Counted from the first letter of the stretch, positions 16,462 to 62,914 are shown. The stretch is DNA of 64,000 bases from an uncultured Clostridia bacterium (GCA_947625725.1 CANQPI010000001.1:22085-86084), one strand, 5' to 3'. Made by a program: numbers and translations. Notes: generated by a model from the letters alone, not told the origin.

Positions 16462-16542
16462 GGCAATCAGTTGGCTGCTATGCCATCCACGCCCGCCGCT
16501 GGGAGGCTTGCCTGTGGGCGCGAGGCTTGCATATAGCAAGCC
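16462..16542 (-). repeat. two-hairpin leader motif, copy 1
   Basis: GGCTTGC-tatat-GCAAGCC then CGCCC-[acaGGCAAGCCTCCCAGCGGC]-GGGCG, about 25 nt upstream of the RBS of gene 15684-16436. Confidence 0.6.
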
Positions 16543-16556
16543 CAAAGGAGGAAAAA

Positions 16557-16655
16557 ATGAAAAGGCTATGCCCAAGTGGCACAGTATTGACCGTTACGCA
16601 ATATGGTCACTTCATCACCAAACAAATACCATTGCTTGGCGGTAGAGAATTTTGA
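16557..16655 (+). CDS. possible 32-aa ORF antisense to 16566-16712
   Basis: AAAGGAGG 5 nt upstream of ATG; MKRLCPSGTVLTVTQYGHFITKQIPLLGGREF. Confidence 0.2.
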   Translation: MKRLCPSGTVLTVTQYGHFITKQIPLLGGREF

Positions 16656-16712
16656 TGACTTTTTGCCCGTACATTTATTGATGAACAAATACGTCGCTCT
16701 TTGTTTTAACAT
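16566..16712 (-). CDS. possible 48-aa protein
   Basis: Start at M19 (AAGGGG RBS), preceded by motif copy 2 just as gene 15684-16436 is preceded by copy 1. Confidence 0.35.
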   Translation of the reverse strand: MLKQRATYLFINKCTGKKSSKFSTAKQWYLFGDEVTILRNGQYCATWA

Positions 16713-16733
16713 AATCCGATCCCCTTGTTGTAA

Positions 16734-16825
16734 GGCAATCAGTTGACTATAACGCCATCCACCCACGCCACAGGGAGGCTTGCCATTGTGGGCAAGAGCC
16801 GCATATCATAAGCGACACGCGGCTC
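16734..16825 (-). repeat. two-hairpin leader motif, copy 2
   Basis: GAGCCGC-16 nt-GCGGCTC then GCCCAC-[aatGGCAAGCCTCCCTGTGGC]-GTGGGT, then ..TGGATGGC..CAACTGATTGCCT shared with copy 1. Confidence 0.6.
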
Positions 16826-17265
16826 CCAATATACCCGCATTGATGAAATGCGGAAGGAATTGTTTGATTATGTGTTGTTTGAAGTCTATACATATACATT
16901 ATCTAAAACATCAAAATGTACGCAATGCCCCTTGGGCAAGTGCGTAGTTCCCCTGCTGGCAGATTTTGATAACCGCCACGCCATAGCATTGCTTGAATAC
17001 TATGTGTATAACGGCTAAAAGGGTAGATGTTACGCAATGTACTTCTAAGACCGGCAATGTCCGCAAGCCGCGTTTAGGCTATCGCTACCTGTTGCCGTTT
17101 TCACTAACCGACACGCCGCAAGTCTACACCTATGCGGCTGAACCGTCGCCTTATTGCGTTTAAGGTTACGCTATGGTAATTCTATCGCCAACCATAGTTG
17201 GCTATAGCAACTTGCCGAATAGGTATCGTGCTATTAAAATAGTCGAACTTCTGACCTATTCGTTG

Positions 17266-17329
17266 CCCGCCCTACGCCACTGGGAGGCGTTGCTACGCAG
17301 GGCATAAGTCACCGCCGCACTATGCGGCG
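17266..17329 (-). repeat. two-hairpin motif, copy 3 (more divergent)
   Basis: CGCCGC-atagt-GCGGCG then GCCCTGCG-[tagCAACGCCTCCCAGTGG]-CGTAGGGC. Confidence 0.5.
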
Positions 17330-17344
17330 ATGACGCTCGTATGG

Positions 17345-17494
17345 TTACAAAGTTTCGTTGTATGTGCGCTCGAAGTCATCACGCAAGGCTATGCCTTCGG
17401 CATCATCGGGATTGATTGCAAGCAATGCCCGAATGGCACGCCGTGTCATCTCCTTGGTATCCTGCCGCGCCCTAATCTGTTGGGCAATGGTCAT
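17345..17494 (-). CDS. possible 49-aa protein
   Basis: AGGAGG 7 nt upstream of ATG; MTIAQQIRARQDTKEMTRRAIRALLAINPDDAEGIALRDDFERTYNETL; below the track cutoff. Confidence 0.45.
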   Translation of the reverse strand: MTIAQQIRARQDTKEMTRRAIRALLAINPDDAEGIALRDDFERTYNETL

Positions 17495-17528
17495 TCGTTA
17501 TCCTCCTGGAATGTTGGTCAATCGTCAC

Positions 17529-17599
17529 GCCGTTCGGTTGCCGTTGGACGGTTGCCACTATAAGGGACGAGCCGTCAACCCCTTTAGGGGTTAGGTTGC
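17529..17599. repeat. 71-bp dispersed direct repeat, copy a
   Basis: Identical to 17668-17738; contains GGTTGCC x2, CCGTTGGACGG, GACGAGCCGTC and the AACCCCTTTAGGGGTT palindrome. Confidence 0.9.
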
Positions 17600-17667
17600 G
17601 GCACCCCCCCCACACACGCGAGGGGTGTCGGCACAGCCTGCCCACATAGGCGGGCGCCGTCGTGGTT

Positions 17668-17738
17668 GCCGTTCGGTTGCCGTTGGACGGTTGCCACTAT
17701 AAGGGACGAGCCGTCAACCCCTTTAGGGGTTAGGTTGC
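17668..17738. repeat. 71-bp dispersed direct repeat, copy b
   Basis: 71/71 identical to 17529-17599 by direct comparison. Confidence 0.9.
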
Positions 17739-17879
17739 TCGCGGTGGTGGGTGTTCTGGTCGCCCCCTTCCCCTGCACCCTATCCCCCACCGACGTACGC
17801 ACACGCTCGCGGTGGTGGGTGTTCTGGTCGCCCCCTTCCCCTGCACCCTATCCCCCACCGACGTACGCACACGCTCGCG
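17738..17879. repeat. 68-bp tandem repeat, 2.1 copies; C-rich on plus strand, G4-type motif on minus strand
   Basis: Units 17738-17805 and 17806-17873 identical. Minus strand reads GGGGGATAGGGTGCAGGGGAAGGGGG in each unit. Confidence 0.9.
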
Positions 17880-17896
17880 TGTGTATATGTGTGCGT

Positions 17897-17932
17897 AAAA
17901 AAAATCCCGCAGGGATTTTGCACCCTGCGGGA
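17897..17932 (-). terminator. strong intrinsic terminator after the HTH gene
   Basis: Minus strand TCCCGCAGGG-tgcaaaat-CCCTGCGGGA followed by T8, 17 nt after the stop of 17949-18809. Confidence 0.8.
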
Positions 17933-17948
17933 CTGCGTTTCAACCCCT

Positions 17949-18809
17949 TTAGGGGTTGATGCGTGGCAAGTTCGTTTTGTCGGTTCCACCGAGATTTTCA
18001 ATCTCGGTGCGTATCCAAGTGCGTACCTCGCTTGCCATCGCTGATACGCGTTGCTTGCTTATAGCAAGCAATTTGGCGGTTTCAGCCGTTGGCTTTTTGA
18101 GTACTACGTACTCAAAGCACTTCCAGCGTTTGGCGGTAGCGTAGGGGTGCTTGCGTTTGACTTCGTCAAACGCGGCGACGAGCGCGTTGCCCTGCTTTGG
18201 CGTGGAGAAGTATTTCTTTGCCCCTAAAGGGGGCAAAGAGCATTCGTCCTGTTCGGGTTCAACCCCTTCGGGGTTGAGCGAGCAAATTTGCTGAGTGGCG
18301 AACCTAAGGTCACGGTCGCAAACCTCTTCCTTCGGAAGAGTTTTGCGGTCACGGCTCTTGTAGTCGTCACGGCTGTCGATTGCTTTAGCAATCGCCTCGA
18401 ACCCTCGCGTGATTGCGTGCGCGACGTTGCCGTCCCTGACAGCCTCGCACACCGCGAGGACGAAGTCCTCGCGCCATTCTTGCACCTCATTCGTAAGTTC
18501 TACGAACTTACGGGCACTGTCCACGAGGTCGTAGGGCAGGTATGCGTTGCGTGCGAGCGTTGCGTGCTTGCTTGCGACGGCGGCGGCATAGTGCAGGAAG
18601 TCGAGATGCCCGAAGTAACCTACCTCTACGAGGTAGGTTAGGTCGTCGATTGGGTAGCACTCAAGACTAAAAGTCTTGGCGAGTTCAACGAGGCGGCTGA
18701 GTTCGGCTTGCAGGTGGCTCTCACGGACTTCGTCCGTGAGGCTGTCGTCTGCGAGGGTTGCAATGACTTCGTCATTGGCGATTGCGTTTGTTTGTTGGCT
18801 GTGTTTCAT
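17949..18809 (-). CDS. HTH protein with sigma-70 region-4-like C-terminus
   Basis: Start at M31 (AAAGGAG + 5 nt). C-terminal FEYVVLKKPTAETAKLLAISKQRVSAMASEVRTWIR resembles sigma region 4 / LuxR-type HTH. GC-rich codon usage unlike neighbours. Confidence 0.6.
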   Translation of the reverse strand: MKHSQQTNAIANDEVIATLADDSLTDEVRESHLQAELSRLVELAKTFSLECYPIDDLTYLVEVGYFGHLDFLHYAAAVASKHATLARNAYLPYDLVDSARKFVELTNEVQEWREDFVLAVCEAVRDGNVAHAITRGFEAIAKAIDSRDDYKSRDRKTLPKEEVCDRDLRFATQQICSLNPEGVEPEQDECSLPPLGAKKYFSTPKQGNALVAAFDEVKRKHPYATAKRWKCFEYVVLKKPTAETAKLLAISKQRVSAMASEVRTWIRTEIENLGGTDKTNLPRINP

Positions 18810-18908
18810 TTTTGCTCCTTTGCCCCTACGGGGCAACCAACCGTCCGTGGCTTGCGTACCCCTTTGGGGTAGCGGTTGGCTCGGTGGGCTGGCTCCCACC
18901 TTGCCACC

Positions 18909-18917
18909 ATTGTACCA
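18909..18917 (-). promoter_or_regulatory. possible extended -10 (TGGTACAAT) for the HTH gene
   Basis: TGnTAcAAT on minus strand about 100 nt upstream of the ATG; three small hairpins in the leader. Confidence 0.3.
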
Positions 18918-19003
18918 CGCCGACGGCGGAATGGCGCAACGGATTTGCAGAGCAAATCCCGTGACGGGCGCGATAACTCACTTCGCGAGTGCATACGCCT
19001 AGG

Positions 19004-19080
19004 CACGCTAATATCCCACTTCGCGGGCGGGCGGGCGCTTGCACGCTAATAACTAACTCTCGCGCGGGCGCGGGCGGGCG
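19004..19080. repeat. 38-bp imperfect direct repeat x2 with GGGCGGGCGGGCG tracts
   Basis: CACGCTAAT at 19004 and 19042, each followed by a CGCGGGCGGGCGGGCG-like run. Confidence 0.6.
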
Positions 19081-19354
19081 TCTATCCTTGTCGCGCGCAC
19101 ACGTGCGGGCGCGCACTTAAGGTTTATTATTTCTTGGATATTTTGTTTGGGAAGTAACGTGGACGTGGGTTGCCTGTCGCTCTTGGGGGTAGGGGGTTGA
19201 GGGTATTATAAAATACTTAGTGGAAATCAAAGATACAAGAGGGTTTGCCGTCGTGGGGTTGGCGGTGTGGTAGTTGCTTGTTTGCTCTCTGGCGGTGGCA
19301 CTTTGCCACCGAACTCGCGGGGAAATAGTATATATAAAAATAAATAATTCGGGG

Positions 19355-19376
19355 GGCTTGCCTCCCTGCGTGGCGG
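19355..19376 (+). repeat. core of the GCCTCCC..GTGGCG motif in inverted orientation
   Basis: GGCTTGCCTCCCTGCGTGGCGG on the plus strand; other copies carry this core on the minus strand; followed by the 9-bp-stem hairpin 19379-19407. Confidence 0.4.
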
Positions 19377-19704
19377 TTGATATTATCTTTTTAGCGTAGA
19401 TAATATCGCAGGGCAGGGGCTATTTTACACATAAATTTATTATATAAATACACCAAAACAATATGTCAGTTCTCCTTCCATCCCACCAAAAAATCCCCGA
19501 CATTTTTACCCCAATTTTCCTCGAAACTCCGTTCGGAGATCTATCGTACACTAGGGAAAGTTTGCTCTCATGCAAATTGCCCTCGTTATCAAATACCCCG
19601 GGGTACAATTACACAAAAGCCCGCACAGTAGGACAAGTTGTCGAAGACGACAAAAAAAGCCCCTTTTATATAGATATAAGTTATGCTTATTTACGACAGT
19701 AAAA

Positions 19705-19750
19705 CTATCTACTATAGGGGTAAAGTATAAGCTATCTACACAGGGGTAAA
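19705..19750. repeat. direct repeats CTATCTAC-N2-3-AGGGGTAAA x2 (iteron/operator-like)
   Basis: 19705-19724 and 19732-19750 in the AT-rich divergent region. Confidence 0.6.
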
Positions 19751-19780
19751 CTATATATTAGTATATTAGAGTACCCAAGT

Positions 19781-19823
19781 AACAGAGAGTACAAATAATA
19801 GTACACACTAAACAGAGAGTACA
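19781..19823. repeat. direct repeats AACAGAGAGTACAA x2
   Basis: 19781-19794 and 19811-19823; additional AGTACAC words nearby. Confidence 0.6.
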
Positions 19824-20002
19824 ATTAAAATAAAAAAAATAAAAGAAAGATTTACATCAGTAAACATATAGTACACAAGATATGCGTATATAACTAATAG
19901 CTAAATACGCGTACTTATATTATGTTTACTAATAAACTATTTAATATTAGATAAATATTAGAAAAAAAATATAAATTTTTCAAATAAATTATTAAAAAAC
20001 TA

Positions 20003-20031
20003 TTGACAAGTACTCAATTATGTCGTATAAT
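20003..20031 (+). promoter_or_regulatory. sigma-70-type consensus promoter (TTGACA-17-TATAAT) for the rightward arm
   Basis: TTGACA 20003-20008, 17-nt spacer, TATAAT 20026-20031, AT-rich upstream. Confidence 0.7.
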
Positions 20032-20037
20032 ATGTAC

Positions 20038-20320
20038 AGGTAGAATAGAGAATCAAGATATTGGATAGAGAGTATTCGCTATTACCGCCGCCTTACGGGC
20101 GGGTTGCTAACTGCATCCTAAGTACCCTTGTATGCTTCGTACCCACACGGAGTTTGCGAGCGGAGCGAGCACCTAAGTTGTTTGAGCGTAACCTCCTCTC
20201 TATCTAAGTACAAAAAGTACGTTTTAGGATACCTTTCCTTTTTAGGGAAGAAAAAATTTCCCCCTACTATAGGGCGCAAATTTTCAAAAGTGCAACCCCC
20301 CTGGTTGCATTTTTTATTTT
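20038..20320 (+). ncRNA. about 280-nt structured leader or short transcript ending at an intrinsic terminator
   Basis: No ORF. Long-range pairs GATAGAGAG(20064)/CTCTCTATC(20196) and ATCCTAA(20115)/TTAGGAT(20224); internal hairpins. Terminator 25 nt before the first RBS. Confidence 0.45.
20291..20320 (+). terminator. intrinsic terminator
   Basis: TGCAACC-CCCCT-GGTTGCA followed by TTTTTTATTTT. Confidence 0.75.
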
Positions 20321-27553: not shown

Positions 27554-27861
27554 GTGTAAATTTTCATAACATTTCTATTTCATTTTTCAAAATTTAGATA
27601 AAATATTTCGACCATTTTTTGCAATTTTACCCCAATTTTTGTCCGAAACCCTTAAAAAATTTTTCCAGAAAATTTTGAACCCCCCCCTATAGCAGGGGTG
27701 TTTCAGAGCAAAATGCAACCCTCGCTTAATTGCCGTATATGGAGAGAGACGACCAGGAGGTCGCCGAGAGCGTGATTGCGGCGTGCTCCGACAGCCTTCA
27801 TTTTGCCCGACGGCAGGGTGCGGACGGTTTGAATTTTTATCAAAGGAGACCAACTGATATT

Positions 27862-41096: not shown

Positions 41097-41592
41097 TTCA
41101 TATCTTGACCAACTTGTTACATACCCCGCGGAAATTATTAACAGAATTGCTTCTGACGATACATGCGTGGGGTTACTTGTCAATAAGGCACCATCTACGG
41201 TAGACGACACCGATCGCGATGCCGTGCTCGACGAACATCTCTTTGACTACCAGTACGTAGATTCCACGACGCAAACATCTACCGCATACGTCTGGGTAGA
41301 GGTTGACGTGGGCGACGTGGAGAATAAACACATCAAGGATTTGAGAGTCTACGTGACCATTGCTTGTCACAAATCCTATATGAAACTTGAGACAAAAGTT
41401 TTCAAGGGGATGATGGGCAACAGGCGAGATAACCTTGCTCGGCGTATAGACGTGTTGCTCAACGATTCGGAGTTTCTGGGCATTGGAAGATTGTCTTTGA
41501 AGTCCGTGAATACCTGTGCGCCGATTAACGGGTTTACGGTGAAGGAACTCACATACATAACGCCAGATTTTAATCAGGTGCCACTAAACTGA
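41089..41592 (+). CDS. hypothetical tail/neck protein
   Basis: 167-aa ORF, coupled. Confidence 0.6.
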   Translation: MANSYLDQLVTYPAEIINRIASDDTCVGLLVNKAPSTVDDTDRDAVLDEHLFDYQYVDSTTQTSTAYVWVEVDVGDVENKHIKDLRVYVTIACHKSYMKLETKVFKGMMGNRRDNLARRIDVLLNDSEFLGIGRLSLKSVNTCAPINGFTVKELTYITPDFNQVPLN

Positions 41593-42362
41593 TGAAACTT
41601 CTATATGAAGATTTAATGAGTGGCGACGTCATTCCAGTCGAGGGTGTGGGACATATTCGGTCTCCATACCTAAGGGAATTGATGCCGACCAAGGGAATCG
41701 GCACTTGGCGATACAACATTTATTTGAACGTGCTGGAGTGGGATAAAGAGAGTATCTTGAAAGCAGACTTTTTTTCCCTCGGGAGAAATTCCAAGGCACT
41801 CCAAAACGAAAAACTTAATGCTTTCGACGTTGCCACACTGGTCGAAACAACGAGGGGACTTTTGCTTGAAGCAATGTCTTTTTTTTTAGACCCAAAAGAG
41901 GAAATGGTGTGGAACAAGGAACAGCGACTATTTGAAGTACATCTCAAAGAGGACGGTTCCATTATCGGGCAAATAACCCGTGATAATTTTGACGAAGTTA
42001 GACACTTGATGTTGCAGATGAACTATATAGGGTTGGGAGAAGAGGCAGCCAAACCGACCAAGTTTACATCTCGCAAGGCAAAAGAACTTTGGGAGCAAGC
42101 GCAGAAGCATTTGCAGGCTTCGAAGGCCAAGTCAATCAAAGAGAAAAGAATGGAACTTGGCAACATTGTGTCAAAGCTTTGCGCCGTTCCAAGCGGCTAT
42201 ACTTTGTTGAATATATACGATTTAACCGTATTTCAACTTTATGATCAATTCTTCCAGTACGGATACATTCGCGCGATGGACTTAAGCGAGCGCGCCTATT
42301 CAATACACGGAGGAAAAGACTTTAAGTTTGAAAACTGGTTGGATCCAATTCTAAAAAAATAA
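41592..42362 (+). CDS. hypothetical tail/neck protein
   Basis: 256-aa ORF with TGATG overlap. Confidence 0.6.
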   Translation: MKLLYEDLMSGDVIPVEGVGHIRSPYLRELMPTKGIGTWRYNIYLNVLEWDKESILKADFFSLGRNSKALQNEKLNAFDVATLVETTRGLLLEAMSFFLDPKEEMVWNKEQRLFEVHLKEDGSIIGQITRDNFDEVRHLMLQMNYIGLGEEAAKPTKFTSRKAKELWEQAQKHLQASKAKSIKEKRMELGNIVSKLCAVPSGYTLLNIYDLTVFQLYDQFFQYGYIRAMDLSERAYSIHGGKDFKFENWLDPILKK

Positions 42363-44120: not shown

Positions 44121-44438
44121 ATGTTACAAACACTTCAAATAATAAGTCTAATCATTGGTGTAACCAACAGCCTTTTCATCGGATTGGTGGCTTTATGCAA
44201 GCCGTTTCGTAATTGGTTTTTAGAGCGCTATCGCGGTCGCGAGACGGATAAGTGTCTGCTTCGTGACAGGATAACGCACATTTATTACAAATACCACACG
44301 ACACAAAAGATACCCCAATATGATTACGACAACCTTGACAGGCTATATCAACAATACAAAAAACTCGGTGGCAACTCTTTTGTCGATAAGATTTGGGCTG
44401 AGATACAAGACCAGTGGGAAGTCACTAAAAATCAATAA
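44121..44438 (+). CDS. small membrane-anchored protein
   Basis: N-terminal TM segment (IISLIIGVTNSLFIGLVAL). Confidence 0.55.
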   Translation: MLQTLQIISLIIGVTNSLFIGLVALCKPFRNWFLERYRGRETDKCLLRDRITHIYYKYHTTQKIPQYDYDNLDRLYQQYKKLGGNSFVDKIWAEIQDQWEVTKNQ

Positions 44439-44461
44439 TATTTTTCCGGAGGGGGACATGT

Positions 44462-45016
44462 ATGAGCAATATGATTAGTGAGCGGGCAATTATGGAACTC
44501 GTGCAGAAGTATGCCGTGTCCCCCGCAGGAAGAAAAAAGATTCGAGAGAAAACAGGATGGGTTTATAGCGAGCACCCAGAGCGCGACTTGATTGCGTATG
44601 GAGAAAAGATGAAGATTGTTTTGCTAAAACATATTGTGCCGCTAATTCACTCAATAACAGCAGATGATATTATAGTCCAACCGCCGCAGATGATAAATGG
44701 AGTTTGGGGCATTAAACTAGCATTTCGCAAGGGTAGCTTGAGAAGGAAGTCCTTGATATATGATGAACTGAGCCGCGGTATAAACAATATCGTCTTACTT
44801 TTCGCAAAGGGCTATCACGCCAGTATGCAGGTTGAAGGTATGTGGAACGTTGGCTCGGCAGAGAATCCAAACTACATCCACGTTAAGAGTAGGCAAGACA
44901 GACCGGCCAATAGTTTTTTGTTGGATGCTGTCAAGGAATTTAATGCTACGGAAGGTGGCGGCATTGCCACGGCATTGCTCCTTGGAGAATACAAGAAGGC
45001 TTCCGAAACTAACTAA
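44462..45016 (+). CDS. hypothetical protein
   Basis: 184-aa ORF with GGAGGGGG RBS. Confidence 0.6.
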   Translation: MSNMISERAIMELVQKYAVSPAGRKKIREKTGWVYSEHPERDLIAYGEKMKIVLLKHIVPLIHSITADDIIVQPPQMINGVWGIKLAFRKGSLRRKSLIYDELSRGINNIVLLFAKGYHASMQVEGMWNVGSAENPNYIHVKSRQDRPANSFLLDAVKEFNATEGGGIATALLLGEYKKASETN

Positions 45017-50113: not shown

Positions 50114-50935
50114 ATGTTACAAGCAACAGAGTTCACATACGATGGCGTTTACTCTGGGTTATACGGATTAAAAATCGCCACGCTTGACGGAAGTTACATG
50201 GACGAAACCGCTTATGCTACTCCGAATATAACTACGGCGAAATCGCCAAACCAAAAACGGTTTTATTACACGGATTCACAATATGAGAGTCCTCCCACTT
50301 TTAATTTTTCAATTATTAGTCCTACTCCGATTCCCGATGGGGTGCAGCGAGAAATAATGGCGTGGCTAGATAATAGACGTGGGTTTCGCCCACTAATATT
50401 TATGCAGCCCGGACTGGATCAGTATACGTACAATTGCGTTATTACTATCGCGGGAATACACTATCACGCGGGAAATGTGATAGGTTACAATCTGTCAATA
50501 CTTTTCGATTCGCCATATCACTTGAAGGCAACGCGTAATGTCATTGTGACCAGCGACGGGGCTGCGCCAAAAGAGGTGCGCTTGCACAACGGGTCGGATA
50601 TAAGAGATGACTACGTGTACCCCGTGGTCACATTCACTTCGAATGGCACATTTACTTCCGACGGTGGAGTGGCGAATTGTAACATAGAAATAATCAACAC
50701 AACTGACGACAAAGAGAGAAGGTTCGTTTTTGCTGGGCTTGATACAGGCGGCGGCGTGACGTTAACCGTGGACAATGAACGCAAACTAATTACCGGCAAC
50801 AAAGGGGATTTTTATCTCGAAAATTTTGTTGACAAGAAGTGGCTTCGCCTCAGACATGGTGTCAATTACGTGACGGTGAGAGTTAATGGGCAGGCAACAT
50901 TCAGTTATCCCGAATATGCCAAAATCAGATTTTAA
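50114..50935 (+). CDS. distal tail protein (Dit)
   Basis: 273 aa directly after the tape measure gene; N-terminus FTYDGVYSGLYGLKIA typical of siphovirus tail family proteins. Confidence 0.7.
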   Translation: MLQATEFTYDGVYSGLYGLKIATLDGSYMDETAYATPNITTAKSPNQKRFYYTDSQYESPPTFNFSIISPTPIPDGVQREIMAWLDNRRGFRPLIFMQPGLDQYTYNCVITIAGIHYHAGNVIGYNLSILFDSPYHLKATRNVIVTSDGAAPKEVRLHNGSDIRDDYVYPVVTFTSNGTFTSDGGVANCNIEIINTTDDKERRFVFAGLDTGGGVTLTVDNERKLITGNKGDFYLENFVDKKWLRLRHGVNYVTVRVNGQATFSYPEYAKIRF

Positions 50936-58606: not shown

Positions 58607-59593
58607 ATGGCAACAACAGAGAAGAATTATAAAATTATACAAAAACTTGGGGATGACGAGTTTCTCGTACTTCATCCCGAAACTACGGCGGAAAACGTTG
58701 TCGTAACAAAAGAAGACGGCTCAACGGAATCTGCCAAGCAATCCCTCGATACGCTCAGCACAGAGATTGAACAAATCAAACAAGGTGCCGTTACGGGCGT
58801 CAAAGGCGAAGCCGAAGAGGGAGATTTCAGACATGGCGACGTGACAATAACCAAGGGAAATATCGGACTTGGTAATGTAACAGATGATGCGCAGGTAAAA
58901 CGCTCCGAAATGGGCGAGGCTAACGGTGTCGCGACTCTTGACGGCACAGGAAAGGTTCCCGCCGCGCAATTGCCGGGTTTTGTAGATGATGTCGAGTCAT
59001 ATGTCAATAGAGCGGCTTTCCCCGAGACGGGCGAAGACGGCAAAATCTACATCGACAAGGAAACCAACAAGCAATATAGGTGGGACGGAGAGTCTGATTA
59101 TGTGGAGATTTCTTCCTCGCTTGCACTTGGCGAAACCGAGTCAACTGCCTATTCTGGTGCGAAAGGCAAAAAGAATAGAGAAGATATCGACGCGCTCAAA
59201 ACGCAAGTATCGGCTATCGAGGAGAAAAACACAGTGCAAGATACGAGCATCCAAAAGAACACGGATGACATCGCAGCTATTAAAGATGGCACAACGCCAG
59301 CGGCTAAGGCTAAAACCGCCGAGAACGCCGACAAACTAACGACCCCGCGCAACATTTCCGTTAGCGGCGATGCGACGGGTGGTAATTCGTTCGATGGCTC
59401 GCTTGACGTTGACATAGAAGTGGAACTTTCGCCAACGGGAGTTGAAGCAGGAAGTTATTCCGCGGTAACAGTTGACACAAAAGGAAGGGTAACGGCTGGC
59501 GCCATGGTAATAGAAGTTGGTCAGGCAGGACAGGAAACTCCAAGCGCAAACCTCGCGGTTGGCGGGCTATTCTTCAAAGCGCTGGAAGCGTAA
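58607..59593 (+). CDS. tail fibre protein
   Basis: 328 aa; shares the VTGVKG..NIGLGNVT.DAQVKRSEMG..GVATL..GKVP.AQLP..VDDV module with the next gene. Confidence 0.7.
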   Translation: MATTEKNYKIIQKLGDDEFLVLHPETTAENVVVTKEDGSTESAKQSLDTLSTEIEQIKQGAVTGVKGEAEEGDFRHGDVTITKGNIGLGNVTDDAQVKRSEMGEANGVATLDGTGKVPAAQLPGFVDDVESYVNRAAFPETGEDGKIYIDKETNKQYRWDGESDYVEISSSLALGETESTAYSGAKGKKNREDIDALKTQVSAIEEKNTVQDTSIQKNTDDIAAIKDGTTPAAKAKTAENADKLTTPRNISVSGDATGGNSFDGSLDVDIEVELSPTGVEAGSYSAVTVDTKGRVTAGAMVIEVGQAGQETPSANLAVGGLFFKALEA

Positions 59594-59608: not shown

Positions 59609-61405
59609 ATGGAGTTCCAAATTTACAAAAAGCTTAATGCCAACGGCGAAATTGTTGAGCTATCCGTGGTTGCGGAAAGAACAAAGCACAAACTCCATTT
59701 TGGTACGGCCGTTTACGACGGTTCGGCGGACGCAACGATCCCCGAGGCCACACAATCGGCTTCGGGATTACTTTCTGCCACTGATAAGAAGGTGCTCGAC
59801 TCGCTAAAAAATCTCGCCACATCGTCCGTAACGGGCGTCAAGGGTGGTGCCGAGGAGAGTTATAGAACCGGGCAGGTCGAAATTACCAAGACAAACATTG
59901 GGCTTGGCAACGTCACTAATGACGCGCAAGTCAAACGCTCGGAAATGGGCAAGGCGGGTGGTGTTGCTACGCTGGGAACGGATGGCAAAGTCCCCTCCGC
60001 GCAGTTACCGTCTTATGTAGATGATGTTGAGGAGTATGCCGATAAGACCAAGTTCCCCACGCAAGGCGAGAGTGGCAAGATCTACGTCGCTCAAGATACC
60101 AATGTTACCTACCGTTGGAGTGGCACGGGTTACGTTGAAATCGGTTCGTCCCTGGCATTAGGCGAAACGTCGAGCACCGCATATGCGGGCGACAAAGGAA
60201 AGAAAAATGCCGACAACATTGCTTCGTTGCAGACGAGGATGACGGCGGTGGAAGGCAAAAACACATCGCAAGACACCGCAATAACCAAAGCCCAAGAAAC
60301 AGCCACAGCGGCTCAGACGACGGCGAACAACGCTGTTAGATATAATGCCGCGCAGTCACTGACCGACACGCAGAAGGCGCAAGCGAGAACCAATCTTGGT
60401 CTCGGCGGCTTGGCAACGAAGTCGGCGATTGCTTCGGGCGACATAACCGATGGCACAATCGTCAATGCGGATATCAACGCAAATGCCGCTATCGCGCAAA
60501 GCAAAATTGACGGACTTCCAAAGTCGTTGACCGATTTGGGCGACCGCATAACTAACTTAACATATAACGACCTGAAACGCATTAACGTCAAATCCTATAC
60601 GGGTGGTGGTACTACCTTTTGGTATTATCCCATTGCGACATTACCCGTCGATAATGATGGTAACTACGCAAGCGTTGTCATAACGGGGCGAATCGGCGGA
60701 TGGGTAAAAACTAATATGTCTTACATCAATGCCGTCGTGTCAAACCGAAGCGGCGAGACAGGTTCGTTCGTCGACTTAGGCGACAACACAAGTTCGGCAC
60801 TAGGCATTACGGATATCGTGCTATATCGTCAAACCGACAACAGAACGATAGTCTATCTCAAATGTAACGCTTACTTCGCTTTTGATATTAACGTTCAGGT
60901 GATGCAAGCGACTTACACCTACAATGGTTCTTATACGACAGCACCCACGGGGACACTTAAATGGAGCGCTTCGACGGCAGCCAATAGCCTGTTCGTTAAC
61001 GTCAACGGCGCGTATGTCAAGGATAAAAAATTGGCTACGGAAGAATTCGTGACAGGAAAGGGATACACGACATTGGCACTTGGCGAAACAGCAACAACAG
61101 CCTATGCCGGCAGCAAGGGCAAAGCAAATGCAGATGCCATTGCGGCTTTACAGACAAGAGCGGGAAATATCGAGAGCAAAAATACAACTCAGGATACAGA
61201 TATATCGGAGTTGAAAACTCGTATGGCCGCTGTAGAAACGAAGAACGGCACGCAAGATACCGCGATTACGAACGCGCAAAACGCGGTGACGGCAGCACAG
61301 ACTACTGCAAATAACGCCGTGCGGTACAATTCCGAGCAGAGTTTGACGGCCGATCAAAAAAAAACAGGCGCGAAGCAACATCGGCGCGGGTACGTCCAGT
61401 TTTAG
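59609..61405 (+). CDS. tail fibre protein, 5' segment (frame lost at the A9 tract 61356-61364)
   Basis: 598-aa ORF; the last 14 codons after the A9 run are out-of-frame junk ending in a premature stop. Confidence 0.7.
   Translation: MEFQIYKKLNANGEIVELSVVAERTKHKLHFGTAVYDGSADATIPEATQSASGLLSATDKKVLDSLKNLATSSVTGVKGGAEESYRTGQVEITKTNIGLGNVTNDAQVKRSEMGKAGGVATLGTDGKVPSAQLPSYVDDVEEYADKTKFPTQGESGKIYVAQDTNVTYRWSGTGYVEIGSSLALGETSSTAYAGDKGKKNADNIASLQTRMTAVEGKNTSQDTAITKAQETATAAQTTANNAVRYNAAQSLTDTQKAQARTNLGLGGLATKSAIASGDITDGTIVNADINANAAIAQSKIDGLPKSLTDLGDRITNLTYNDLKRINVKSYTGGGTTFWYYPIATLPVDNDGNYASVVITGRIGGWVKTNMSYINAVVSNRSGETGSFVDLGDNTSSALGITDIVLYRQTDNRTIVYLKCNAYFAFDINVQVMQATYTYNGSYTTAPTGTLKWSASTAANSLFVNVNGAYVKDKKLATEEFVTGKGYTTLALGETATTAYAGSKGKANADAIAALQTRAGNIESKNTTQDTDISELKTRMAAVETKNGTQDTAITNAQNAVTAAQTTANNAVRYNSEQSLTADQKKTGAKQHRRGYVQF
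61356..61364 (+). other. A9 homopolymer at the frameshift junction of the fibre gene
   Basis: gatcAAAAAAAAAcagg. Removing one A restores ..DQKKQARSNIGAGTSSFSGSYNDLTNKPT.., parallel to the upstream paralogous ..TQKAQARTNLGLGG. Confidence 0.85.
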
Positions 61406-62003
61406 CGGGTCGTATAACGACTTAACAAACAAACCAACCATACCAACTATACCTAATATCGGTATCACAAATAGTGGGAGCGGCAATGCGGTGACTTCTA
61501 TAACCGCAAGCGGACACACAATAACCGTCACAAAGGGTGCCACTTATGCTACCAGTGCAGACCTAGCCACAGTCAAAAGCACTGCGGATAGCGCAAGCGC
61601 GACTGCGAGCACGGCGGTACAGTCCGTCTCGGGCTCAAACGGCATCACGACAAGCAAGAGCGGCACGGCAATTACAGTCAAAGGCGTTACGGCGAACACA
61701 AGCACGATAGGTGTTGCGTATTTGCATACCTCTGCTGATTGCACATCCTTTTCGAGCGATAACGGTGGGGCTACCCCTGCGGCGGTCAAAAAAGCGATTA
61801 CAACAGAAGCCACACAACCAAACGGCATTTTTAACGCTACATCAACGCACCGTGGCACAATGTCGAAAGAGGACAAGGCGAAGTTAGACGCGTTCGGAGC
61901 GGCAAGCACATATGCCTTGAAATCCGACTTGACGGGTTTTATCAAAGCATCGGATGTGGCATTTTCAATTAACAGTAATGGCGAATTGGTCGTCACTTAC
62001 TAA
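61365..62003 (+). CDS. tail fibre protein, 3' segment in the +1 frame
   Basis: Frame open from the junction to 62003; the track shows only the part from the internal Met (61491). Confidence 0.6.
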   Translation, partial: QARSNIGAGTSSFSGSYNDLTNKPTIPTIPNIGITNSGSGNAVTSITASGHTITVTKGATYATSADLATVKSTADSASATASTAVQSVSGSNGITTSKSGTAITVKGVTANTSTIGVAYLHTSADCTSFSSDNGGATPAAVKKAITTEATQPNGIFNATSTHRGTMSKEDKAKLDAFGAASTYALKSDLTGFIKASDVAFSINSNGELVVTY

Positions 62004-62020
62004 TATAAGGAGATGAAATA

Positions 62021-62914
62021 ATGGAAACAAACCTTGGACGTGTACGGGGCGCCGGTGTATTTGGATCGACGTCGACAAGCACAACAAGCATTGCAACAAA
62101 CACCGTAAAAGCGAGTGGTGGCATTGTTCCCCTTAAGGGCGATACCATAATTAACGCCAACGGTGATTTGTGTGAAATAACGGCCGTAACAAGTACCGCT
62201 TACACGGTCACAAAATATGGAAGTATAAGAGGTGCTGATGGAGCGTCTGGGCAAGAAGGACAATATGCGGCGACGTATCGCGGCCCCGCACAAGAGTACG
62301 ATGATGTGTCAAACCCAATACCCGAGCAATGGGCACAAGATGATTATCCGGAATATTCCTTGGGCGTGGGTTATGTAGATCCGCGCAACGTGTATTTAGG
62401 TTGTACAATATACGTTCCAGTAAAACTTAAATCGAACGGGCTGGTGTACTGGGCACCGTGTAAAACATTGAATACAGCTGTCGGAACTTTTCTTATTAAG
62501 GTCAAGCAAACTCAACCATTCGACAAATGCGCAGTATTAACGGGGCCCGAGGGTCCTGTTGGCCCAGAACCGACGAGAGTATTAAATACCATTCGTTTGA
62601 GATGTGCTGATAGTAGTACGTATAATTTTGATATTACATTCAGCATTATTTGTAATGAAAAAATAACAGCAGCGACATTCAATGAATTGGGGCAATGGTG
62701 TGTACTAAATGGCTTTTTAACGACGCTACCCGTAAGTGGAGCAGTTGCTAGAGAGGCGGTCACATTGTTGCCAGTCTTTATAACGATTGAGACAAATTTT
62801 ATGAGATTAGTTGCTGCGCAGCCAGGCTCTGATTTGACGTTAGCAAGTGTTTCGATACGCGAGAATATTGGCACGATATTATTAAATATAACGAGTCGAA
62901 CATTAAAAGCATAA
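62021..62914 (+). CDS. hypothetical fibre-associated protein with short collagen-like tracts
   Basis: 297 aa; GADGASGQEGQ and GPEGPVGPEP; AAGGAG RBS. Confidence 0.6.
   Translation: METNLGRVRGAGVFGSTSTSTTSIATNTVKASGGIVPLKGDTIINANGDLCEITAVTSTAYTVTKYGSIRGADGASGQEGQYAATYRGPAQEYDDVSNPIPEQWAQDDYPEYSLGVGYVDPRNVYLGCTIYVPVKLKSNGLVYWAPCKTLNTAVGTFLIKVKQTQPFDKCAVLTGPEGPVGPEPTRVLNTIRLRCADSSTYNFDITFSIICNEKITAATFNELGQWCVLNGFLTTLPVSGAVAREAVTLLPVFITIETNFMRLVAAQPGSDLTLASVSIRENIGTILLNITSRTLKA

Follow-up and report, generated by a model that had tools for sequence, protein, structure and literature searches.

The stretch of DNA analysed here comprises 64,000 nucleotides from an uncultured Clostridia bacterium (GCA_947625725.1, CANQPI010000001.1:22085-86084) and is called the window in the following. 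It carries genes of a tailed phage, among them a tail-fibre gene which contains a run of nine A residues (A9), gatcAAAAAAAAAcagg, at 61356-61364 on the plus strand. Standard decoding of this A9 allele gives an open reading frame (ORF) at 59609-61405 on the plus strand, whose product of 598 amino acids (aa) has the C-terminus ...QSLTADQKKTGAKQHRRGYVQF-TAG (...LTADQKKTGAKQHRRGYVQF*). Around the tract the zero frame reads GAT CAA AAA AAA ACA GGC and it meets the TAG 13 codons further on. The first-pass annotation of the window had pointed out that with eight A residues (A8) the frame would instead continue to 62003. It proposed a fibre gene split by a frameshift and named phase variation, recoding and sequencing error as possible causes. 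The position of the tract, the end of the 598-aa ORF and the A8 continuation given there are correct in every detail. The fibre itself is built from modules of the type LTxxQKxQARxNIG / GSYNDLTNKPTIPT and its gene belongs to the tail module, where it is located downstream of the presumed tape measure gene. The matches of the fibre in the PHROG collection are to tail, minor-tail and fibre families.

The A9 tract and the reading frames of the fibre gene

The change of frame is confined to positions 61347-61402, because the +1 frame is bounded by a TGA at 61344-61346 and the zero frame by the TAG at 61403-61405 (Table 1). From 61347 the +1 frame is open for 218 codons until its stop at 62001-62003. 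We simulated other tract lengths and obtained a product of 797 aa for A8 and of 798 aa for A11. The tract lengths A7, A9, A10 and A12 all give truncated forms of 598-605 aa (604 aa for A7, 598 aa for A9 and 605 aa for A10). As in a contingency locus, the repeat lies inside a coding sequence and a change by one unit toggles between a full-length and a truncated product. The A8 product fuses both frames and reads ...LTADQKKQARSNIGAGTSSFSGSYNDLTNKPTIPT..., with the junction peptide ...SLTADQKKQAR / SNIGAGTSSFSGSYNDLTNKPTIPTIPNIGITNSGSGNAVTSITASGHTITVTK. We also considered a reassignment of the stop codon, which was rejected since a TAA comes four codons beyond the TAG.

Table 1. Positions of the features in and around the split fibre gene, counted in the window
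Feature	Position	Strand	Remarks
Zero-frame tail-fibre ORF	59609..61405	+	598 aa; exact protein (P0001) present in NCBI, ENA and Logan assemblies
A9 homopolymer, site of the frame change	61356..61364	+	zero frame CAA AAA AAA ACA
TGA closing the +1 frame upstream of the tract	61344..61346	+	
TAG, stop of the zero frame	61403..61405	+	TAA four codons later
Distal fibre module, +1 frame	61365..62003	+	212 codons and stop
Mechanically called 170-aa ORF, GTG start	61491..62003	+	exact product found in NCBI, ENA and Logan data
Intact paralogous motif copy in the same gene	60359..60400	+	LTDTQKAQARTNLG; codons CAG AAG GCG CAA GCG, without homopolymer
Internal globular "knob" domain	60506..61048	+	about residues 300-480; kept in the truncated product; KSYTGGGTTFWYYPIATLPVDNDGNYASVVITGRIGGW...
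Upstream paralogous fibre gene	58607..59593	+	328 aa; common N-terminal stalk modules
Presumed distal tail protein gene	50114-50935		no family match

The repaired junction of the A8 form, LTADQKKQARSNIG, brings back a fibre motif, namely L-T-x-x-Q-K-x-Q-A-R-x-N-I-G. In the 397 proteins which we fetched, this motif occurs 153 times in 96 proteins and the gap between K and QAR is one residue every time. The protein of the window, P0001, is the sole one of the 397 that stops right after LTxxQK. Because the spacing is invariant and P0001 alone stops there, we infer that the ancestral tract was A8 (CAA AAA AAA CAG, that is Q K K Q) and that the event was probably the insertion of one A. The last 13 residues of the 598-aa product (TGAKQHRRGYVQF) are out-of-frame junk. 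Unrelated viral contigs encode the motif with mixed codons and in a single frame, and none of the unrelated motif-bearing fibres (397 fetched proteins; 1.23 Mb of loci) is split at the motif.

The 212 residues behind the tract were used as query in a HMMER scan of 1.84 billion representative proteins, which yielded 1745 hits. When the repaired protein was compared by BLAST with the best 148 of these, 55 high-scoring segment pairs (HSPs) to 32 uninterrupted proteins were found to span the junction. Examples are P0280 (72% over 87 aa), P0306, P0255 and P0287 (42% over 200 aa), the latter being a protein of 690 aa which contains nearly the whole distal module. With 32 uninterrupted homologues and an invariant motif spacing the shifted frame is the conserved continuation of the protein. 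Furthermore, the paralogous motif copy upstream in the same gene and the repaired junction align gap-free with 58% identity over 108 columns (E = 4e-35), so the parallel between the two segments drawn in the first-pass annotation is borne out. That a frame change restores a conserved motif exactly at the tract is not chance, unlike the A9 run itself. Simulated tract lengths, motif and homologues together support the proposal that the gene is split at A9 and that A8 would give a single fibre ORF.

The distal frame is intact. None of the 212 codons behind the tract is a stop, and the codon usage there is normal, the codon log-odds being +0.195 bits/codon in the +1 frame versus -0.72 and -0.46 in the other frames. 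The distal module would be translatable only after a change of the tract length or a frameshift. The 170-aa ORF which had been called mechanically within the module was rejected as an independent gene because its homologues run through the GTG at 61491 and no promoter or terminator intervenes between it and the 598-aa ORF. At least 45 HSPs already include the 42 residues before the GTG, the alignment with P0152 passes the GTG uninterrupted, and no promoter-like or terminator-like sites were found between 61405 and 61491. Judged by these alignments, the GTG lies inside a conserved module and the 170-aa ORF is the tail of the fibre ORF, as was suggested in the first-pass annotation, and an artefact of ORF calling. 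For annotation the lesson is that this 170-aa "gene" is not a gene and that a single frameshifted coding sequence is the proper annotation of the fibre. The distal module matches no Pfam family, and for the fused protein no sequence homologue was found in the PDB. The AlphaFold2 model of the distal module is poor (predicted local distance difference test score 52.5, predicted template modelling score 0.18). It is the position of the module, and only its position, which suggests a receptor-binding role.

The fibre gene is a mosaic of an N-terminal stalk, the knob, a second stalk that repeats the first, and the distal module. The N-terminal stalk is common to the fibre gene and its 328-aa upstream paralogue. 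Of these parts the truncated product retains both stalks and the knob; the distal 212 residues are absent. Two homologues, P0005 and P0003, contain a domain with 38-41% identity to the knob. P0005 (920 aa) ends 26 residues past the knob and P0003 (1221 aa) continues for about 415 residues more. From these two architectures it follows that fibres ending soon after the knob and fibres extending beyond it both exist. It is architecturally plausible that a fibre ends after the knob, and the 598-aa product may well be a working fibre. The knob has no match in Pfam, in the PHROG families with assigned function or in the PDB and is thus an uncharacterised, reusable fibre node.

The two adjacent fibre genes at 58607-59593 and 59609-61405 share the patterns GVATL..GKVP..QLPS.VDDV and LALGET..TAY.G.KG. 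As their DNA is only 64-81% identical, the pair is an old and not a recent duplication. A recent duplication or a horizontally acquired patch at the tract was likewise rejected, since the paralogous segments are only 64-71% identical at the DNA level and there is no step in GC content.

Explanations for the A9 allele

In every public assembly of the phage A9 is the consensus. The tract was present in six out of six contigs from ERZ27248994, ERZ27249265, ERZ27249483, ERR10663710 and ERR10663711, which represent no fewer than five read sets as well as two assemblers (SPAdes-style NODE contigs and Logan). Compared with the window over 2-8.5 kb, these contigs show 0, 1 or 3 substitutions, and all of them cross the tract without a break. 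The sequences sharing A9 are at least 99.96% identical and shared ancestry therefore suffices to explain the common tract. Among the 11 long homopolymers in the window A9 alone sits at a frame junction, and none of the other long tracts, out of 71 in 1.23 Mb (fetched loci and window), splits a gene. A T9 run and three A8 runs of the window lie inside intact genes and keep their frames. Since T9 and several A8 runs are found in intact genes, there is no general homopolymer problem in the assembly, and a random or general homopolymer error at A9 is unlikely. Nevertheless, the true genome could be A8 with a single 797-aa gene. With several sequencing chemistries indel errors arise chiefly in homopolymers, the k-mer coverage of the ENA contigs is only about 3.4-3.5, and the samples possibly belong to one study so that a systematic error could recur. 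In view of the six separately assembled contigs and the unbroken genes around the other long homopolymers we consider such an artefact very unlikely, and the sequencing error which the first-pass annotation had listed as an alternative is largely refuted.

Two further observations concern homopolymers in the window. The T9 run (41879-41887) is equal in length to A9; it lies without a frame shift in an intact 256-aa gene (41592-42362), where it codes for ...M-S-F-F-L-D..., and is by the literature a better substrate for RNA polymerase slippage than A9. PolyG/C tracts are classic phase-variable elements of promoters or coding sequences. Two C8 runs are present, one at 17604-17611 in a stretch without an ORF of at least 100 aa and one at 27680-27687 in the intergenic region between a 927-aa and a 457-aa gene.

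We searched for relatives of the phage in which the tract could be compared. Megablast and tblastn against 50,697 phage records revealed no close relative. Scans of IMG/VR with the fibre, the distal module, the downstream gene and the presumed distal tail protein gene returned modular or unrelated matches only. Exact-flank DNA patterns with a variable tract had no match in GTDB genomes or JGI metagenomes, and the 297-aa gene downstream of the fibre, when used as an anchor, led only to unrelated phage contigs of 31-36 kb which share its N-terminal 80 residues or so. Overall, no diverged relative was found in INPHARED, IMG/VR, the GTDB genomes, the JGI metagenomes or a collection of 5.8 billion protein clusters.

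The sequence around the tract was also inspected for recoding signals. The RNA folds no better than shuffled sequences, neither in the 80 nt upstream (z = 0.11) nor in the 100 nt downstream (z = 0.17). No Shine-Dalgarno (SD)-like sequence or GGAGG could be seen upstream of the tract when the sequence was read directly, and no Rfam family or frameshift element matches. Hence neither the SD-like sequence nor the downstream structure of +1 frameshifting sites is found here. The codon following the shift site, ACA, is the commonest Thr codon (33%) and not a slow one. In this genome CAA makes up 66% of the Gln codons and AAA 55% of the Lys codons; owing to these preferences Q-K-K is an A8 run by default. 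Runs of A9 or T9 are not enriched in the window (2 observed versus 4.24 expected from shuffles). What is present at the frame transition is a sense-strand run of the length, about nine or more A or T, that is typical of programmed transcriptional slippage. Nothing in these results indicates that programmed recoding shaped the evolution of the site. Given the lack of recoding signals, the default QKK codons and the invariance of the tract among the assemblies, the programmed frameshift considered in the first-pass annotation is not supported. In particular, programmed +1 (or -2) ribosomal frameshifting by a Lys-tRNA slipping on AAA AAA A is hardly credible. A +1 shift from AAA at 61361-61363 to AAA at 61362-61364 would re-pair perfectly and yield the canonical DQKKQARS, and +1 shifts are known in phage structural genes (PMC5009743). 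However, the next codon is neither a stop nor rare, the stimulatory elements named above were not found, and the known sites of Listeria phages consist of CCC_UGA or of CCC with a pseudoknot.

We suggest instead, as a fairly probable explanation, that A9 is a genuine insertion allele, derived from A8, at a slippery tract which gives reversible or leaky access to the distal module. The insertion would have occurred in the Gln-Lys-Lys codons of the conserved motif of a mosaic fibre gene. The main product would then be the truncated 598-aa fibre which keeps the knob. Access to the distal module could be regained by two routes. By slippage during DNA replication A9 could return to A8, which would resemble a contingency locus as in phage T2 and the Campylobacter phages. 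Alternatively, unassisted slippage of the RNA polymerase on A9 could produce A8 or A11 transcripts and thereby a minority of full-length fibre. A truncated fibre together with a slippage-dependent full-length fibre, as envisaged in the first-pass annotation, is a plausible consequence of such an allele, but the truncated form loses a module and swaps none, so the wording "a different distal domain" used there needs a slight correction. For a role as host-range switch we found no evidence.

Several points weigh against leaky or reversible access. In the transcript only a change of -1 or +2 brings the frame back, and the commonest slippage, +1, fails. A9 templates may therefore yield little full-length protein. 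The RNA polymerase of Escherichia coli slips far less on A runs than on T runs (PMC6260861), and the amount of full-length fibre made from A9 could be negligible. Heterogeneity in tract length, as expected for a contingency locus, was not seen, all six assemblies being A9, and a collection of 15 billion proteins contains no A8, A10 or A11 product. We note that the assemblies are not fully independent, as the samples probably come from one study, and that minority alleles would be invisible at the low k-mer coverage of the ENA contigs (~3.4-3.5).

A recent inactivating frameshift could also mean plain gene decay, with the distal module as a dead remnant and the truncated fibre as all that the phage uses. 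This would agree with the uniform A9 in the assemblies and an A8 allele found nowhere, with the complete knob, which is near-terminal in a homologue, and with the lack of recoding signals. Yet 212 codons without a stop and with normal codon usage would require that the decay be very recent, and a run of nine A is bound to slip somewhat in DNA and RNA, so that strict silence is unlikely. Decay departs from the explanation which we prefer only in how much slippage matters, and as such we regard it as unlikely. The opposite view is that A9 is kept by selection and that RNA polymerase slippage sets the ratio of a short and a long fibre, much as in Citrobacter rodentium tssM1 or Shigella mxiE. Programmed expression of two isoforms would fit the occurrence of A9 in every assembly, including sequences 1-3 single nucleotide polymorphisms (SNPs) apart, the intact and codon-adapted distal frame, and the homologues, which show both architectures (knob near-terminal in P0005, knob with distal extension in P0003). 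In many bacteria nine A suffice for productive slippage (PMC1088944), and the function of tssM1 needs both length variants and their ratio (PMC4256274). On the other hand, the A9 sequences are so similar that shared ancestry explains the constancy, the tract is the default codon choice for QKK, and no diverged relative carrying it was found in the collections searched. None of the 32 junction-spanning homologues is split at this site, restoration does not come from the usual +1 slippage, and a hairpin in the nascent RNA upstream of the tract was not found. We therefore hold programmed two-isoform expression to be possible but doubtful. Its extended version, a selected device which provides short knob-only and long distal-module isoforms in a set ratio and hence mixed virions recognising two receptors, is rather unlikely; if true, it would be the first dual tail fibre encoded by transcriptional slippage, in a large Firmicute siphophage.

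For the insertion allele as we interpret it, the consequences depend on the tract. If it switches or leaks, the outer end of the fibre and perhaps the host range could change without recombination, and the phage contingency loci so far seen in coliphages and Campylobacter phages would extend to an uncultured large siphophage. The present evidence amounts to one well-documented frameshift allele, known from its sequence alone, and its weight is modest.

Genomic setting and host

The genes of the phage follow the order terminase, portal, presumed capsid, a 1662-aa ORF, a 1491-aa tail protein (PHROG "minor tail protein") and the fibres. From its size and position the 1662-aa ORF is presumably the tape measure. 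Two small ORFs at 44121-45016 precede it, which do not show the overlapping -1 frameshift usual for tail chaperones. The frame of the second ORF is open from just 10 nt ahead of the first stop, and this ORF comes with a ribosome binding site (GGAGGGGGA) and an ATG of its own. As the second ORF thus possesses its own start signals, a tail-chaperone frameshift which could have served as a comparator within the genome is not evident.

For the gene downstream of the fibre (62021-62914, 297 aa) neither PHROG nor Pfam gives a match. Over the first 80 residues or so its product shares 57-68% identity with the N-termini of proteins that are 258-520 aa long. P0248, which is among these N-terminal matches, is found on at least 23 contigs, and those which we examined (L167-L170) are the unrelated 31-36 kb phage contigs mentioned above. 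This distribution suggests a common virion-attachment domain with exchangeable C-termini, and the 297-aa gene may encode a second receptor-binding protein. In another part of the window, at 16500-20300, about 3.8 kb contain few long ORFs and three A8 runs (17897, 19832 and 19962). This region lies where the genes switch from the minus to the plus strand and may be a regulatory or origin region. No tRNA genes were found in the whole window.

The source contig of the phage measures 190,731 bp. The portal protein shares only about 30% identity with its counterparts in large siphophages of Bacillus, Brevibacillus, Alicyclobacillus and Lactococcus, and the phage is probably an uncultured large siphophage of a Firmicute. 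Beyond the 3′ end of the window the extending contigs carry a gene for an anaerobic ribonucleotide reductase, NrdD (L164, 4548-7156), and another gene whose match in Pfam is radical-SAM activase-like (PF13353; L165, 9652-10338). Because of these two genes an anaerobic host is suggested for the phage.

Comparison with known systems

Several known systems resemble the fibre gene in part. The capsid and tail genes of the Listeria phages PSA, A118 and A500 also gain a C-terminal extension of a structural protein from the +1 frame. Their sites, CCC_UGA or CCC with a pseudoknot, are conserved among phages (PMC5009743), whereas the fibre tract has no comparable signal. A closer likeness in outcome is offered by the G-run of the herpes simplex thymidine kinase gene, where a one-base indel in a homopolymer kills most of the expression and slippage on that run leaves a trickle of full-length product (the "savior" indel; Atkins et al. 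2016, PMC5009743). That case differs in that it concerns a eukaryotic virus, drug selection and ribosomal compensation (PMC5009743).

Transcriptional slippage becomes relevant in many bacteria at a length of nine A or T (PMC1088944). In dnaX of Thermus thermophilus an A9 run makes the shorter form about 50% of the product (PMC1088944), and the A11 run of Citrobacter rodentium tssM1 gives rise to transcripts with 10-15 As, including one-base deletions (PMC4256274). In tssM1, dnaX and Shigella mxiE, as in the fibre gene, an A run stands just before a premature stop and the downstream frame is the conserved C-terminal part of the protein. No RNA structure or SD sequence is needed, and short and long products are possible. 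For these genes, however, the heterogeneity of the mRNA and the need for both products were shown, and the tssM arrangement recurs in Yersinia. The fibre gene is known here only as sequence and would require a change of -1 or +2 rather than +1.

Among phages, the hypermutable polyG tracts of the Campylobacter Fletchervirus phages are similar in that a homopolymer lies in a receptor-binding or fibre gene and its length decides on the full product (Sorensen et al. 2021, Cell Rep 35:109214). G tracts of 7-11 are reported to occur there in several genes and genus-wide, and sub-populations with different host range were shown. The fibre gene, in contrast, has a single A tract in one phage lineage without relatives found, and it is known from assemblies alone. 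Simple sequence repeats are under-represented in the tail-fibre genes of coliphages (bioRxiv 10.1101/2025.10.21.683753). For the agt gene of phage T2 the same study (Gomez, Barrick & Waters) reports that the A9 run at bases 288-296 mutates at ~7e-4, its reversion being about 1000 times faster than that of a SNP. For agt, measurements of the switching rate, the reversion and the phenotype thus exist and the majority state is ON, whereas the consensus of the fibre gene is OFF and no heterogeneity was seen. What agt of T2/T4 and the fibre gene have in common is a run of nine A within a phage coding sequence, in which the gain or loss of one A toggles between the full-length and the truncated product; in agt, replication slippage makes this change frequent and reversible.

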